32,000 bases of DNA from Candidatus Bathyarchaeota archaeon (GTDB lineage: Archaea > Thermoproteota > Bathyarchaeia > Bathyarchaeales > Bathycorpusculaceae): assembly GCA_963815095.1 (NCBI GenBank), contig CAWFFH010000003.1:1109962-1141961 (forward strand), in the 5' to 3' direction. Of this stretch, positions 7,055 to 32,000 are shown one piece after another; the stretch's first letter is position 1; each line of letters starts with the position of its first letter. Under the pieces are notes generated by a model that saw nothing but the letters and a program-made list of their open reading frames with translations, had not been told where the DNA came from and did not search any database. Made by a program: the position numbers and the translations under genes.

Positions 7055-8119
7055 TCAACAGATTCTTGGTACTGGATCGCCAACTGGTTTTGCGATTATT
7101 CTTTTGCCACCCACCAAAGTTTGCATCGCTACTCCCTTGAATTCGGAGGTGATTTCGCCGATTATTTGTGCATCCTTGCCCTCTTTGGTCTGCTTTAAGA
7201 ACGCGAGTACTTCTTCGGTTTTTTGGTGAACAGCGCCAATTATGATTTTGCCCTCATTGCCAATTTCTAAGGGGTCTAGGCCAAGCATTTCGCATGCAGT
7301 TTGTACGTCGCTTCGGATTGGGACCTTGTCTTCATGGATTAGGATGCCTATTTTTGATTTTTCGGTCCATTCGTTTAGGGCGTCGGCTAAGCCTCCTCGG
7401 GTGGGATCTTTCATTGCGACAACGCCGCCGACATTGCCCAGCAAACTTTGAATCATTCGGTTAAGCGGCTTCACATCCGACTTTATTTCACTGCCAAACT
7501 TTAAGCCCTGCTGTGCCGAAAGCACTGCTAAACCATGGTCTCCGATTGTGCCTGACAATATGATTTTGTCGCCGACTGCAAGGTTAGAATCAAGTGCCCA
7601 GCGGGCTTTAAGTTCACGATATTTCCTGGCAACTTGAAGGTTACTCTCGAGAGCTGGAGTTCGCCTGCCTATGCCTGAAACATTCATAACACATCCGCCT
7701 AGACTGCCCTTCTCCACAACTTTCGTATCACCCGTAACTATGCCAACGCCCGCTTCAATGCAGGCTTGTCGCATGCTACCAAGGATAAGCTTCAAATCCG
7801 ATAGTAACAAACCCTCCTCAAGGATGAGTCCGCAAGCCAACGCATAAGGCTCCGCGCCCAAGCACGAAATATCGTTAACAGTACCTGAAATGGATAGACG
7901 CCCGATGTCGCCGCCTGGGAAAAATATGGGTTTAACGGCGTGGGAGTCGCTTTTGAAAACTATATCTCCAATGACTGCTGCGTCATCCATGGCTTCCAAT
8001 GGAACTTCGGCTTCGTTGACTAATCCGCCAAAATATTTTACTATGTAGTTTTTGACGAGGTCATGCATTACTGAGCCGCCCGCGCCATGCAGCATTGTGA
8101 TTTTCTCGATTTTATCCAT
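7055..8119 (-). CDS. hypE: hydrogenase maturation carbamoyl dehydratase HypE
   Basis: 354 aa PurM-fold protein. N-terminus has MLHGAGGS, and the C-terminus ends ...PRIC, the HypE-specific terminal cysteine motif. Confidence 0.93.
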   Translation of the reverse strand: MDKIEKITMLHGAGGSVMHDLVKNYIVKYFGGLVNEAEVPLEAMDDAAVIGDIVFKSDSHAVKPIFFPGGDIGRLSISGTVNDISCLGAEPYALACGLILEEGLLLSDLKLILGSMRQACIEAGVGIVTGDTKVVEKGSLGGCVMNVSGIGRRTPALESNLQVARKYRELKARWALDSNLAVGDKIILSGTIGDHGLAVLSAQQGLKFGSEIKSDVKPLNRMIQSLLGNVGGVVAMKDPTRGGLADALNEWTEKSKIGILIHEDKVPIRSDVQTACEMLGLDPLEIGNEGKIIIGAVHQKTEEVLAFLKQTKEGKDAQIIGEITSEFKGVAMQTLVGGKRIIAKPVGDPVPRIC

Positions 8120-26985: not shown

Positions 26986-27008
26986 GTGATAATGCTTTTT
27001 GATATTGA

Positions 27009-27215
27009 ATGATCTCAAATATAACTCTCTTCATTGTGACCTTAATTGGTATGGCTTTGACAATTTTGATAATGTTTCTGCCCACAATTATTGAGTTAAG
27101 AAAACCTCGCGATGCTGGACCAAGATTAATAACAGAGTCCTTTACGTCAGCACAGCCTCTTAATCTTAAAACATCTTCAGACGACAAAGACGAGTTAAAA
27201 AAGACAGCTAATTAG
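27009..27215 (+). CDS. hypothetical small single-pass membrane protein
   Basis: 68 aa with an N-terminal hydrophobic helix (ITLFIVTLIGMALTILIMFLP) and a polar tail. It starts 23 nt after the GT2 stop. No clear Shine-Dalgarno. Confidence 0.35.
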   Translation: MISNITLFIVTLIGMALTILIMFLPTIIELRKPRDAGPRLITESFTSAQPLNLKTSSDDKDELKKTAN

Positions 27216-27228
27216 CTATTTTGAGCTA

Positions 27229-28275
27229 CTAATTTTTTTTGAAAAGTAACTTTGCATTTTTCCATTGGTCTTTAGCTAGTGATATATTTCCGTATGGGCT
27301 TCCGTGAAGCGAATAGAATACGTAGCAGAGATAGTTGCATTGAGTGCATTGGTGATAGTTTTTTCTTAATTGTTTGAATTCTGGACTTTTCCATTTTTGA
27401 GTTAAATCAAAGATTGACCCTGCAAAGTTGTGGCTGTGGCATCCTGCAACTCTGCCCAAATGGTCAATGACTAAAAACTGGTTTAGTGCTTGGCATTTCC
27501 ACGATCTTTTGTTGTCTTCTTCGTAGATGCTTCGAAGTGTTTCAAGCAATTTATCGGTCATGAGAATTTTTTTGTTTTTCTTTTTCATCTCGATAAGCGA
27601 GTTGCAGAGGTTAACCATTGCTTTTTTGTCTGTTATTACAAATTCGTCATTTGCTCTTCCCAGCTTAAACAACTGTTTGCTGTCAGCAGATGTATCGTAT
27701 GAGTAGAGACTATACCAGACTGGAATACCTTTTTCGGTGAAGTGGTTTGTTAGGTCAACGATTTCATAAAGGTTCTTTTGAGAAATTGTTGGAGTTACAC
27801 TAACTTTTATGCCTTCATTGTGGAGGGTTTCAACGGCTTGAGTTGCATTTTTCCAAGCGCCCGGAACTGATTTGATGTAATCGTTTTTTGCTTCATCCAG
27901 ACTATCAATTGAGATTGCAACGAAATCCACTTTTCTTAATGCATCAAGTTTTTTTGCAGCCATACTTCCATTATCATAAACAGTTGTAACAAACAATTTT
28001 GATGCATAATTGATTATTTCGCCGATGTCATCTCGAAGTAGCGGGTCTCCGCCTGAGAGGACAAGCTCAATTACACCAATTTTTTTTAGAATATCTAAGC
28101 CTTTCTTTATTTCGTCGGTTGCAAGTTCTCTTTGATCTTGTTCTTTCCAAACGGTGCATCCACGGCATTGATAGTTGCATTTTCTTGTTACTAGCCATTG
28201 TGCATGATGAGGTTTGCCAGAAGCAAGCGAACGCGCCGCAATTGATGCTGCTTTTTTGAAACCAGACGTCAACAA
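27229..28275 (-). CDS. radical SAM enzyme with SPASM/twitch-like C-terminal Cys motifs
   Basis: CNYQCRGC (CX3CX2C) lies near the N-terminus, with GGDPLL as a SAM-binding motif. The C-terminal CQALNQFLVIDHLGRVAGC fits CX9-15GX4C and is followed by CTQCNYLC. TTG start; the in-frame upstream codon is a stop. Confidence 0.85.
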   Translation of the reverse strand: MLTSGFKKAASIAARSLASGKPHHAQWLVTRKCNYQCRGCTVWKEQDQRELATDEIKKGLDILKKIGVIELVLSGGDPLLRDDIGEIINYASKLFVTTVYDNGSMAAKKLDALRKVDFVAISIDSLDEAKNDYIKSVPGAWKNATQAVETLHNEGIKVSVTPTISQKNLYEIVDLTNHFTEKGIPVWYSLYSYDTSADSKQLFKLGRANDEFVITDKKAMVNLCNSLIEMKKKNKKILMTDKLLETLRSIYEEDNKRSWKCQALNQFLVIDHLGRVAGCHSHNFAGSIFDLTQKWKSPEFKQLRKNYHQCTQCNYLCYVFYSLHGSPYGNISLAKDQWKNAKLLFKKN

Positions 28276-28360
28276 GTATCACTAGCCGATTAATTGTTAT
28301 TACCTATCTCGGGTAGGAACTATAAAAACCATTATAAAACTAAGGTTCTCGTATGTTGTT

Positions 28361-29377
28361 TCATGTGCTTTGACGAGACAGTGCAATCCACAGATGGTCT
28401 GAGGTTGGTCTTGGTAATATCTCTGGCGAATCATCCTTGTGAATGATTATGCGTTTGTTTGGGGTTGGGTTGAATTCGCCGATGACATCAGCGTATATGT
28501 GTTCTTGGCCGAGTGAGTCGATAATTTTATTTGTGGCTTGTGGGTCGGCGGCGATAAGTAGTGCTCCTGAACTGATAAGTTGCAGTGGGTCAATTTCGTA
28601 AAACCTGCAGATTTTAGCGGTTTCAGGTTCAATAGTTATTTTCTCTTCAAACACGCGTACGCCTAAGCCTGCTGCGTCCGCCATTTCGTGAATACCGTTT
28701 AAGATTCCGCCTTCAGTTGGGTCGTGCATGGCATGTACTCCACCTGCTCTGTAAGCGGTTAAGGCATCTTTTACGATGCTGATTTGTTTGTAGAAACCTT
28801 TAGCGCTATCCAACAAGGTGGAGGTGAAAGTTTTTGTGAGCTGCACTTCCCGGTCAGAAGCTAAGATAGCTGTGCCCTCAATTCCTGCGCTCTTCGTCAA
28901 AATTAGTTTGTCGCCTGCTTTGGTGCCAGCGGCAGTAACGTATTTGCCTTTTTCGGTTAAACCCATGATGCAGCCCACCACAATCGGGTTCTCTAAGCCG
29001 GGTGTGGATTCGCAGTGTCCGCCCACAATAGCAATGCCCAACTCTTTTGCAGCTTTGTGCATTTGGGTACTGATGGTTTCAACGATTTTGCTGTCCGCGT
29101 TCTCTGGAAGCATTATGCATGAGAAGAAAAACGCGGGTTCCACGCCGAAAGTGGCAACATCGTTGGCGTTTACGTTTATGGCTTCCCATCCGACTCGCTC
29201 AACCGCACCAGTTATGGGGTCCATAGAGACTATAGCGTTCTTATTTCCAAAATCTAAAACGGCTCCGTCCACACCTGCGGCGGGTCCCAAAATAACTTCG
29301 CTACGGGCGGTGCCGAGGTTTTTGAAAACTACATCTTTTAGGATGTCTATGGGAATTTTTCCAGGTGGAAGCTTCAT
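28361..29377 (-). CDS. AIR synthase-related protein (PurM/HypE/ThiL superfamily), specific function unknown
   Basis: MKLPPGKIPIDILKDVVF...GVDGAVLDF...VSMDPITG...NDVATFG...GGHCE...HAMHDPTEGG. It lacks the HypE C-terminal PRIC. I prefer the ATG at 29377 (GAGG 8 nt upstream) over the tracked 29452, which would overlap the upstream gene. Confidence 0.8.
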   Translation of the reverse strand: MKLPPGKIPIDILKDVVFKNLGTARSEVILGPAAGVDGAVLDFGNKNAIVSMDPITGAVERVGWEAINVNANDVATFGVEPAFFFSCIMLPENADSKIVETISTQMHKAAKELGIAIVGGHCESTPGLENPIVVGCIMGLTEKGKYVTAAGTKAGDKLILTKSAGIEGTAILASDREVQLTKTFTSTLLDSAKGFYKQISIVKDALTAYRAGGVHAMHDPTEGGILNGIHEMADAAGLGVRVFEEKITIEPETAKICRFYEIDPLQLISSGALLIAADPQATNKIIDSLGQEHIYADVIGEFNPTPNKRIIIHKDDSPEILPRPTSDHLWIALSRQST

Positions 29378-29390
29378 GCGTATTCCTCTG

Positions 29391-29918
29391 TTAAAGCTGG
29401 CTTTTAAGCTGTGGGAAAATACGCAGTACTGCGTGCATGATTGGTACTGCAATTATCAGGCCAATGAGCATTTGAACGATGTTGAAAGGAACTTCTAGAA
29501 TCGCCACAGTACTTCCTAAGATAAGTGTTTCATAAAGGAAGTATCCTAAAACCATCTCAAACCCTCCAATAACAATGGATATGGTGGCGCTTAAAGTGAT
29601 GCTTTTAGTCTTCTGTACTATTTTCTTGTATAGGATGCCGACGAGTAAACCTTCAATTGCTTTTATAGTGAAGGTTCCGGGGGCATACTGCGGAGCTACA
29701 AGTGCATCTGCTATTGTTGCTCCTGCACCTGCTATGGCACCTACAAAAGGCCCGAACAGCAATGCAGCTACGTAAATGAGAGTCTCTCCGAGATTGAAGT
29801 ATCCACTGGTAGCAGGAATAGGAATCACAAACAGTAGTGTGGCTGCTGCGACTAGTGCTGCAAAGATTGCGGCTACTGCAATTTTGAATGGTGTGGTTGT
29901 GTTAAATTTGGATTGCAT
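29391..29918 (-). CDS. ECF-transporter S-component-like membrane protein (substrate unknown)
   Basis: 175 aa with about six hydrophobic segments. The pattern GYFNLGETLIYVAALLFGP...GAGATIADAL...YAPGTFTIKAIEGLLVG is typical of the S-component family. No EcfA or EcfT genes are in the window. Confidence 0.7.
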   Translation of the reverse strand: MQSKFNTTTPFKIAVAAIFAALVAAATLLFVIPIPATSGYFNLGETLIYVAALLFGPFVGAIAGAGATIADALVAPQYAPGTFTIKAIEGLLVGILYKKIVQKTKSITLSATISIVIGGFEMVLGYFLYETLILGSTVAILEVPFNIVQMLIGLIIAVPIMHAVLRIFPQLKSQL

Positions 29919-29991
29919 GTTTTTCGCCTTAGTATAGTTGTGACTATAGTATAGTTGCAGCTATACCATCTAATAAATATTCCCAAAACAA

Positions 29992-31404
29992 TCACATCAG
30001 CAACTGAATCTCATCAAACGCCGCCAAAACTTTTTTCCCACGCTCCGAAACACGGAAAAACTTCTTCCCACCAACCTCGTAACCAATCACCAACCCCTTA
30101 TCTGACAGTTCGTTGAGGTGTTGGTAGATAGCGGCGCGCGTCATTATCTTGCCCAATTGTTTCCACAAATCATAACCATACGTATCTTTCTCATTGAGAA
30201 TCTTGAGAATTTTCTGTTTCGTACTTACCGCGAGCCCTAAGCCTATCGTCTTCTGTTTCTTGTTCAAAGCTTGCAACACATCAGTGGCTTTAAGACCGCT
30301 CCCCGTAATTAGGCACACAACGCTACCGTCTTTTGAGATTCTTTTTTCATCTACAAGCTTTTTCAATGCTGCGACAGTTATTGCACTGGCTGGTTCTGCA
30401 AACACGCCCTCTAGTTTTGCGATCTGGAGTTCTGCAATCAAAATGTCTTGATCGGACACGGTTAAGGAAAGCCCTCCTGACTCAGTTATTGCTTTGGAGG
30501 CAAGTTCGCATTGAAGTGGATTTCCTACGAGGATTGCAAGGGCTCGAGTGGATGGATTGCAAGTTTTATTATTTTCAGAACCTTTGGCCGCGTTCACTAT
30601 AGCAGCACATCCGTCAGGTTGAACTCCAACCATCTTTGGCAAGGTCTTCGTTAAGCCGCGTTGTTTTAGTTCTTTGAATCCTTTCCAAACTGAGTAAATG
30701 GTGCCCCCGCTTCCCATGGAAACTATCATCCACTCGGGAACCTCATATTGTTCCATAATTTCGAAAGAAATGGTTTTTTGGGCTTCAATCACCAGCGGGT
30801 TAAGTTCCGCAGTTGCTTGATACCAACCTGTTTCTTTTGCTACAGCCTTTGCTTTTTGGATTGAGTCGTCAATGATTTCGCCGTATTCCTCAATTATCGC
30901 ATCGTAGGCAAGTATCTGGGCAAGTTTTCCCACATCCACTTCTTTTGGAACTATTACATGACAATTTAATCCAGCTTTTGCCGAGTAAGCGGCCAGAGAT
31001 GCTCCCATGTTGCCGTTAGTTGCGCATACCAGTGTATCTGAAAGGAGGTCTATAGCATTAGAGGTTAGGAGTGCAGCAGCCCGGTCTCGATAGGAGTTGG
31101 TTGGGTTTCGTGTTTCATCCTTCAAATAAAGTTTAGTTAATCCCATTGTTTTCGCAAGTCTCTCAGCCTTATGAAGGGGTGTTCCACCCTCTCCTAAACT
31201 GACCATTTGCCTGACAGCAGGAAGCATTTGCCTATACCTCCAAAACCTAAGTGTTCCAGAAAACTTGACCGATCGTTTCTGGGGAACGTCTGCCGTGTAC
31301 TCCAATATTTTACCGCATTTTTCGCAGTTACTTCTAAGTGGGTAAACTGGAAATTTGGTGCCACAATGACTGCATTGAAGGTTTTCGTTGGACTCTTGGA
31401 GCAT
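29992..31404 (-). CDS. zinc-ribbon / threonine-synthase-like (fold-type II PLP) domain with Lys-to-Arg at the Schiff-base position / C-terminal PadR-like winged helix
   Basis: CSHC-x12-CEKC at the N-terminus. LYLKDETRNPTNSYRDRAAA compares with the canonical NPTGSFKDRG. CATNGNMGASLAAY and SMGSGGTIYS are also present. The C-terminal LKILNEKDTYGYDLWKQLG...IYQHLNELSDKGLVIGYEVGGKKFFRVSERGKKVL resembles PadR. Confidence 0.85.
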   Translation of the reverse strand: MLQESNENLQCSHCGTKFPVYPLRSNCEKCGKILEYTADVPQKRSVKFSGTLRFWRYRQMLPAVRQMVSLGEGGTPLHKAERLAKTMGLTKLYLKDETRNPTNSYRDRAAALLTSNAIDLLSDTLVCATNGNMGASLAAYSAKAGLNCHVIVPKEVDVGKLAQILAYDAIIEEYGEIIDDSIQKAKAVAKETGWYQATAELNPLVIEAQKTISFEIMEQYEVPEWMIVSMGSGGTIYSVWKGFKELKQRGLTKTLPKMVGVQPDGCAAIVNAAKGSENNKTCNPSTRALAILVGNPLQCELASKAITESGGLSLTVSDQDILIAELQIAKLEGVFAEPASAITVAALKKLVDEKRISKDGSVVCLITGSGLKATDVLQALNKKQKTIGLGLAVSTKQKILKILNEKDTYGYDLWKQLGKIMTRAAIYQHLNELSDKGLVIGYEVGGKKFFRVSERGKKVLAAFDEIQLLM

Positions 31405-31465
31405 TTTTGGTTAAATCCAGTCAACTATTATTGTGTTCCTCCATTTCTCTCTTATCCAAAATTTG

Positions 31466-31481
31466 GTTACTAAATAGTAAC
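31466..31481. promoter_or_regulatory. palindrome GTTACTA-AA-TAGTAAC in the divergent promoter region upstream of the ThrC-like/wHTH gene
   Basis: 7-bp perfect arms with a 2-bp spacer, 62-77 nt upstream of the ATG at 31404. The palindrome ACTATAGT abuts it at 31480-31487. Confidence 0.4.
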
Positions 31482-31585
31482 TATAGTTGTTTCCCAAGAG
31501 CATTACAAAAGTAGCTAATGCGAGGGGGAAAATCTAAATGTGACTTCTTCAAAGAATAATGTAGAACTAAGAGAGTTGCGTAAAA

Positions 31586-31990
31586 ATGAGCACTGTTAGA
31601 GAAGACCCAATTAAAATGCATAAAGATGCAATCACGTTGATGGAAAATGGCAAGTACGCTGAGGCAAAAGACCTCTTTATGAAAGTGGCAGAACTCTATT
31701 ATAAGGGACAGAACTATTTTGGCGCGGCAGAAATGAATTATAAAGCAGGCGAATGTAGTTTTGCGCTAAAAGACTATACAAAAGCTGTAGAATTTTTCAC
31801 CAAATCTGCTGACATCTCATTTGGCAAAGGCTTTGAGCGTTATGGCGTTAGTGCATTAGAGCAAGCGCGTGATAGCCAGAAATCATTGGGTAACGCTAAA
31901 GAAGTAGCGGAACTGGAAAAGAAGATTAGGGAAATCAACGACAAACAAAAAGAGCCTGAAGGCGAATCTTCGTTCTCTGTATTTTCCTAA
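31586..31990 (+). CDS. hypothetical protein with TPR-like helical repeats
   Basis: 134 aa. Helical repeat signatures occur (NGKYAEAKDLFMKVAELYY, KDYTKAVEFFTKSADI). GAGAG lies upstream of the ATG. No specific family recognised. Confidence 0.5.
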   Translation: MSTVREDPIKMHKDAITLMENGKYAEAKDLFMKVAELYYKGQNYFGAAEMNYKAGECSFALKDYTKAVEFFTKSADISFGKGFERYGVSALEQARDSQKSLGNAKEVAELEKKIREINDKQKEPEGESSFSVFS

Positions 31991-32000
31991 ACTTGTTTAG

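Follow-up and report, generated by a model that had tools for sequence, protein, structure and literature searches.

A conserved transporter, PurM-fold and regulator gene unit as a candidate vitamin B6 salvage locus in Bathyarchaeia

A 32,000-nucleotide stretch of a Candidatus Bathyarchaeota archaeon genome (contig CAWFFH010000003.1, positions 1,109,962 to 1,141,961; hereafter the window) carries a cluster of four minus-strand genes, in which we recognize a candidate system for vitamin B6 uptake and salvage. The genes encode, in order, a regulator with a threonine synthase fold, the S-component of an energy-coupling factor (ECF) transporter, a protein of the PurM/AIR-synthase fold (here called PurM-like) and a radical S-adenosylmethionine (SAM) protein (Table 1). 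Our analysis confirmed the four open reading frames (ORFs) and the intergenic distances of 73, 13 and 85 nt, in agreement with an initial annotation made from the letters of the DNA alone. The 13-nt gap between the S-component and PurM-like genes reads CAGAGGAATACGC and contains the GAGG that this annotation had pointed out. The source genome as analyzed comprises 2.69 Mb and is 98% complete. Domains were called with Pfam and NCBIfam profiles, scored against the curated cut-offs.

Table 1 Genes and candidate regulatory sites of the cluster, in window coordinates
Feature	Position	Strand	Description
ThrC-fold/winged helix-turn-helix regulator	29992-31404	-	470 aa; N-terminal zinc ribbon, threonine synthase domain and C-terminal PadR-like winged helix
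ECF S-component	29391-29918	-	175 aa; PF07155; candidate B6-vitamer binding/import subunit
PurM/AIR-synthase-fold protein	28361-29377	-	338 aa from the ATG at 29377; AIRS and AIRS_C; candidate B6-vitamer kinase
Radical SAM protein	27229-28275	-	348 aa, TTG start; Cys-rich C-terminal (twitch/partial SPASM) domain; neighbor
Two overlapping palindromes GTATAGTT-NN-AACTATAC (candidate operator)	29932-29966	no strand	14-48 nt 5' of the S-component ATG
AACTATAGTT palindrome (candidate autoregulation site)	31479-31490	no strand	5' of the regulator gene; CAACTATA match at 31482-31489

The regulator matches PALP (1.3e-72) and PadR (1.8e-08) in Pfam, with the PadR winged helix-turn-helix assigned to residues 399-461 (PF03551; 34.7 bits, cut-off 27). 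Alignment to the 'threonine synthase' profile NF004170 spans residues 9-463, tail included. Compared with the ThrC structures 2zsj and 2d1f, the lysine that forms the Schiff base with pyridoxal 5'-phosphate (PLP) is replaced by arginine (NPTNSYRDR instead of NPTGSFKDR). The GNTS loop of ThrC has become GN[ML]G in the regulators, which retain the glycine-rich GSGGT loop and the TGSGLK motif. A second ThrC in the source genome is canonical, with the lysine present and no winged-helix tail. Pfam found no GntR or Aminotran_1_2 domain in the regulator, which places it outside the MocR/PdxR family.

For comparison we used 151 genomes of the class Bathyarchaeia; genomes (G), loci (L) and GTDB families (f) are cited by code. 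The neighborhoods of relatives were rebuilt from retrieved loci with our own ORF calling, which is crude and makes start positions approximate. Dozens of full-length regulator matches with the tail occur in this set, and the winged helix is among the best-conserved regions of the orthologue alignment. The family divides into two clades. Type 1 mostly has arginine at the lysine position, as does every full-length orthologue checked that shares the gene order of the window. Type 2, a sister clade of proteins of about 490 aa, has Met, Leu, Ile or Val there, where readable. Type-2 genes lie divergent to pdxS-pdxT in three genomes (G146, G080, G143; PdxT confirmed) and divergent to S-components of type S1, the type of the window locus, in five (L149, L150, L153, L158, L159). 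These domains, the lysine replacement and the conserved linkage described below uphold the initial proposal of a dedicated regulator built from a pseudo-enzyme.

Although the window protein lacks the lysine that marks a genuine ThrC, it scores well as one, and other lysine-less regulators do the same: NF006050 gives 314.7 bits against a cut-off of 303, and TIGR00260 gives 230.7 (L145:6674-8140) and 206 (window) against 167. Automatic pipelines will consequently name such proteins threonine synthase, and the public 'threonine synthase' names on lysine-less regulators are probably wrong.

The S-component belongs to PF07155 (ECF-ribofla_trS; 103.5 bits, cut-off 26.7, residues 12-164). Its sole sequence match in the PDB is 4hzu_S, aligned over nearly the full length (E = 1.4e-14). 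PF07155 (COG4720) is the family of PdxU and PdxU2/HmpT (PMC9997740), and 4HZU chain S is HmpT, which binds pyridoxamine (PMC4860826). A B6 vitamer is thus the candidate substrate by homology. The initial annotation regarded the S-component as lacking EcfA/T partners. An energizing module is nevertheless encoded elsewhere in the genome (G000:C3:397605-400058), comprising EcfT (CbiQ, 121.9 bits) and two paralogous ATP-binding cassette ATPases, so the S-component is not an orphan; such separation is usual for shared-module ECF systems.

The name of PF07155, the ECF riboflavin S-component family, would fit a different substrate, with the S-component acting as RibU and the PurM-like enzyme acting on riboflavin; the source genome has no lumazine synthase match and therefore probably needs external riboflavin. 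Against this, the PDB match is to HmpT and to no RibU structure, three archaeal CTP-dependent riboflavin kinases are already encoded, and no flavin genes occur among the genomic links found. We consider riboflavin uptake highly improbable.

The PurM-like protein is a member of the PurM superfamily by domain content (PF00586, 62.5 bits; PF02769, 86.1 bits) and by fold. Its AlphaFold2 model (mean confidence score, pLDDT, 95.8) matches the structures of HypE, ThiL, SelD and PurM, with HypE closest (template modeling (TM) score 0.81-0.83, 22% identity) and ThiL and SelD next (0.70-0.72). The subfamily as a whole retains acidic and His/Gly motifs. All three named enzymes were rejected as identities: TIGR02124 (HypE) gives 107.5 against a cut-off of 251.6, TIGR01379 (ThiL) 91.7 against 184.15 and TIGR00476 (SelD) 69.9 against 125. 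The protein falls under every NCBIfam family cut-off, including those of hypE, thiL, selD and purM, and is best described as a member of an uncharacterized subfamily. It ends in ...ALSRQST, with no terminal Cys and no PRIC, while a true hypE at 7055-8119 has a product that does end in PRIC; a canonical ThiL (256.8 bits) is encoded at G000:C3:232073-233095. The initial annotation was therefore right to treat the gene as a paralogue distinct from HypE. Near-identical Bathyarchaeia proteins carry the public labels 'HypE' (from JGI) or 'AIR synthase family protein'.

A tree built from 123 PurM-like sequences places the window protein in a well-supported clade of 47 rows, all from Bathyarchaeia, whose members adjoin S1, the regulator or pdxST. 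Longer representatives include fusions to HAD, ThiN, NYN and GIY-YIG domains; a fusion of S-component and PurM-like protein was sought among them and none was found. A bacterial clade (Chloroflexota, Poribacteria, Acidobacteriota, Planctomycetota and others; P0172, P0222, P0215, P0225; L088-L138) has no adjacent S-component, and some of its members carry the HAD, NYN or GIY-YIG domain at the N-terminus. The neighbors of bacterial homologues (Cdc6, SHMT, VanW, PIG-L, TldD) show no shared theme.

Across Bathyarchaeia, the regulator, S-component and PurM-like genes stay together as a conserved unit. Within the genus, the immediate neighbor of the PurM-like gene is an S-component homologue at 27 of 29 loci. 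Among the 46 other loci of the window clade, 29 have S1 at most two genes away; these 29 represent 10 or more GTDB family codes, with the genes in every orientation. The regulator is found upstream of this pair in many families; in family f11, the S-component follows the regulator instead. In one genome (G067), a window-clade PurM-like gene is followed on a single strand by pdxS and then pdxT. These neighborhoods bear out the earlier view that the S-component and PurM-fold genes belong together, and place the regulator, but not the radical SAM gene, with them.

Other genes recur around these loci. The gene divergent from the cluster on its upstream side (31586-31990, 134 aa) keeps its place in many same-genus loci. 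The regulator's slot just 5' of the S-component is taken in some relatives by a gene for an Amidohydro_2 protein (PF04909) about 243 aa long (L064:479-1210, L066:4290-5024, L067:4413-5138; Pfam assignment from L066). A DUF1614 membrane protein of about 230 aa with 6-7 transmembrane segments appears beside a type-2 regulator, beside pdxT and between two PurM-like pairs (L148:7535-8233, L165:654-1358, L170:4480-5169). It could be a further B6-related membrane protein.

Between the regulator stop and the S-component ATG, many orthologous loci share a palindrome close to TAGTATAGTT-NN-AACTATACTA, conserved across families. One of the two window copies is the best match in the entire genome (one mismatch) and the other is one of six matches with two mismatches. 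The CAACTATA element occurs four times in the window, against 0.84 expected, and three of these occurrences fall in the two promoters of the cluster. Both type-2 settings, the intergenic regions divergent to pdxS-pdxT and to S1, have in common the palindrome ATATATAAG-N6-CCTATATAT. Scanning the genome for further type-1 palindromes gave matches at chance level only, and no wider regulon was detected. Rfam found no family match in positions 27000-32000, and hence no riboswitch. The placement of the palindrome over the S-component promoter suggests repression by promoter occlusion; we infer repression, rather than activation, from this position. The regulator is probably a B6 sensor that controls the importer and the ATP-using enzyme.

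The vitamin B6 gene content of the genome points the same way. Neither PdxS nor PdxH has a match in the source genome, and PdxH is likewise without a match in the genus. PF08543, the family of PdxK and ThiD, also has no match in the source genome, with 14 of 14 control genomes positive. PLP is nonetheless needed, since enzymes such as the canonical ThrC are encoded. From its gene content, this soil archaeon is predicted to be unable to make vitamin B6. Across the class, PdxS is found in 24 of the 151 genomes and PF08543 in 71, nearly always at the size of ThiDN, while the PurM-like gene is present in 129.

Bacterial PdxR regulons comprise pdxST, pdxK and pdxU (PMC5320631). By analogy, the locus would mirror such a regulon with unrelated proteins, the PurM-fold gene standing in the position of pdxK. 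The initial annotation had suggested salvage or modification of a small molecule such as an amino-acid or vitamin-like precursor; the PdxU-type S-component and the pdxST links agree with salvage of a vitamin-like compound. It had found no matching pathway, and here the PdxR analogy goes a step further by making B6 the best candidate substrate. We favor the reading that the locus serves uptake and salvage of vitamin B6 in a Bathyarchaeon auxotrophic for it, and hold this reading to be slightly better than an even bet.

In the proposed mechanism, the PdxU/HmpT-type S-component would bind a B6 vitamer and import it through the genome's separately encoded EcfAA'T module. The PurM-fold enzyme, translationally coupled to the S-component, would then convert the vitamer to its 5'-phosphate at the expense of ATP, in place of the missing PdxK, and the resulting pyridoxamine 5'-phosphate (PMP) or PLP would pass to PLP-dependent enzymes. 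The regulator is envisaged as a dimeric repressor of the PadR winged-helix type that has kept the PLP pocket, lost the Schiff-base lysine and takes PLP, or a different form of B6, as its ligand. When B6 is plentiful, the liganded regulator would occupy the palindrome overlapping the S-component promoter and switch the operon off.

Several observations weigh against this reading. The evidence for a B6 unit is comparative throughout, and the related genomes are not independent of one another. HmpT was originally predicted to transport hydroxymethylpyrimidine (HMP). No S1 lies within two genes in 15 of the 46 other window-clade loci. The lysine is kept in two type-1 regulators (L163, L164), the regulator adjoins a canonical thrC in family f11, and a single GTDB family accounts for all three of the regulators next to pdxST. 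The PurM-like gene and PdxS do not show the clean anticorrelation that we had expected: PdxS-positive and PdxS-negative genomes alike carry the PurM-like gene. Among relatives about 40% identical to the PurM-like protein, some have ThiN as a fused domain or as a neighbor and some carry a HAD fusion, and in Thermofilum, ThiN lies two genes from the PurM-like gene, so the subfamily has thiamine links too. The weakest link is the reaction of the PurM-like enzyme, because phosphorylation of an alcohol would be new for the superfamily: no PurM-superfamily enzyme is known to do this, and the known members act on an amide or carbonyl oxygen, phosphate or selenide. The assignment as a B6 kinase, made by analogy of gene position, is one that the protein may satisfy.

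The thiamine links raise the possibility that the S-component imports HMP or thiazole and that the PurM-like protein is a ThiD-, ThiM- or ThiL-like kinase feeding thiamine phosphate synthesis. HMP being the first substrate assigned to HmpT-type S-components is in keeping with this, and so are a ThiN/PurM-like fusion (P0245), a Methanocrinis ThiN directly upstream of a PurM-like gene and the joint occurrence of ThiN, PurM-like gene and S1 in the Thermofilum locus (L090). Two types of PurM-like paralogue have thiamine partners as well. In the source genome, ThiT (TIGR02357, above cut-off) is directly followed by a paralogue 33% identical to the window protein (G000:C3:103404-104975; L002:1441-3012), a pair that is kept in all eight relatives fetched and may serve thiamine salvage. 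In four other genomes of the order, three of them in the same genus (L194-L197; G015, G003, G042, G022), an operon contains a PF07155 S-component, a class I methyltransferase and a third PurM-like type. Three of these loci also encode ThiE (confirmed with Pfam in L194). Uptake and activation of a thiamine precursor is a possible role of the operon. A third S-component of the source genome (PF12822) overlaps by 4 nt a 258-aa ORF with a weak AIRS N-domain match only and no NCBIfam match (G000:C3:1335379-1336832; L058:1294-2747). The PurM-like subfamily seems to consist of ATP-using enzymes with vitamin-related roles and different specificities.

For the window locus itself, thiamine-precursor salvage is distinctly unlikely. 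The source genome has no match to ThiE, ThiN, ThiC, ThiD or a true ThiM, which would leave phosphorylated precursors without a use, and its canonical ThiL is encoded elsewhere. In the tree, the ThiN-fused and ThiN-adjacent homologues group with the ThiT-linked paralogue in a separate basal clade and not with the window protein, and the genomic links of the regulator family, like those of the window clade, are with pdxST rather than thi genes.

The ancestry of the regulator invites another alternative, in which the sensor binds O-phosphohomoserine or threonine and the PurM-like protein is the homoserine kinase of an organism without ThrB. ThrC is indeed the closest relative of the sensor domain, no ThrB scores above cut-off in the source genome, and there is the thrC adjacency of the f11 genomes. 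A tandem duplication of thrC as the origin of the regulator would also account for that adjacency, however, and the missing ThrB is covered by an apgM-like 'proposed homoserine kinase' (TIGR02535; 515 bits, cut-off 446; G000:C5:54551-55747). The change from GNTS to GN[ML]G together with the loss of the lysine also argues against this reading, and the pdxST and PdxU-type links would be left unexplained. We judge this alternative very unlikely.

The initial annotation placed the radical SAM gene in the same pathway. Its product is a radical SAM protein (Radical_SAM, 81.2 bits) with the CX3CX2C motif at C33/C37/C40. The SPASM-type motifs noted earlier stand only in part: the C-terminal region is Cys-rich and includes a CX2CX3C, with five cysteines only (C261, C279, C310, C313, C317) where the SPASM pattern has seven, and the SPASM profile is borderline (20.5 bits, cut-off 21.5). 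No NCBIfam family passes its cut-off (best TIGR03961, 108.8 against 306).

A four-gene pathway, in which the PurM-fold enzyme activates the compound taken up and the radical SAM protein modifies the product, has some support in gene order. The gene lies directly downstream of the PurM-like gene in the window and in L059, L064 and L066, one arrangement among several, and within about 1-4 kb of it in families f1, f2, f3 and f6. Since SPASM/twitch radical SAM dehydrogenases that turn alcohols into carbonyls exist (anSME, BtrN) and no PdxH was found in the genus, one speculative variant, of low probability, would have the protein replace PdxH by oxidizing pyridoxine (phosphate) to pyridoxal (phosphate) without oxygen. 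Orthologues occur, however, in only 32 of the 151 genomes, against 129 for the PurM-like gene. They are found in f1, f2, f6 and f11; f17 and f20 also have distant copies. No linkage to the PurM-like gene is seen in f11, in f17 or in several of the f1 genomes. Where the two are close, the intervening genes vary and are often glycosyltransferase family 2 (GT2) genes on the opposite strand. The 85-nt gap in the window contains T-runs and a TATA-like AT-rich stretch, and the radical SAM gene probably has its own promoter. Given the difference in distribution and the loose linkage, we leave it out of the unit, to which it probably does not belong; the four-gene pathway is unlikely.

A broader conjecture, which we offer tentatively and expect to fail sooner than to hold, is that Bathyarchaeia swapped the ribokinase-fold enzymes PdxK, ThiD and ThiM for a diversified group of PurM-fold kinases, each with the gene of its own ECF S-component as a neighbor (B6 type, ThiT pair, ThiE-linked). 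The B6 member would be an alternative B6 kinase governed by a new archaeal class of PLP-sensing regulator that arose from a lysine-less threonine synthase, and in some lineages the adjacent SPASM-like radical SAM protein would be an oxygen-independent substitute for the oxidase acting on pyridoxine 5'-phosphate (PNP) and PMP.

Alternative B6 kinases are still to be found and B6 transporters are poorly known (PMC9997740). Our literature search returned no published description of this B6 unit, nothing relevant on a PurM-fold pyridoxal kinase or a regulator joining ThrC to a winged helix, and no PLP-sensing regulator for Archaea. The locus supplies a candidate sensor, importer and kinase in a widespread, mostly uncultured lineage of soils and sediments. 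It suggests that most Bathyarchaeia depend on external vitamins B6 and B1, which bears on their cultivation. The locus also exposes systematic mis-annotation, of lysine-less regulators as threonine synthase and of PurM-fold proteins as HypE.

The individual proteins resemble known ones to different degrees. The S-component shares the PF07155 family and the dependence on a shared EcfAA'T module with PdxU2/HmpT of Lactobacillus brevis (4HZU chain S). It is a distant relative, however, with a predicted substrate, and its gene has a PurM-fold gene and that of a dedicated regulator as partners. Similarly, the PurM-like protein has the two-domain fold and the conserved acidic and His/Gly motifs of HypE, ThiL and SelD, but it lacks the PRIC cysteine, scores below their cut-offs and is partnered by a vitamin transporter, a PLP-fold regulator and pdxST. 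Its proposed role, ATP-dependent phosphorylation of a B6 vitamer by a protein encoded beside a B6 transporter under a PLP-sensing regulator, is that of the ribokinase-fold enzymes PdxK, PdxY and ThiD2. In contrast to these, its fold is unrelated, its activity is a proposal and its chemistry would be new to the PurM superfamily.

The closest parallel for the system as a whole is bacterial PdxR, of the MocR/GabR type. Like PdxR, the window regulator family presents an enzyme-derived PLP-fold sensor beside pdxST, a B6 S-component and a salvage gene, which it presumably controls through repeats or palindromes in the intergenic regions that the genes share (PMC5320631). The sensor itself is different, being built on fold-type II threonine synthase instead of a fold-type I aminotransferase, with the Schiff-base lysine lost in most members. 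The winged helix is PadR-like and C-terminal, in contrast to the N-terminal GntR domain of PdxR, the hosts are archaea, and a PurM-fold protein takes the place of pdxK.

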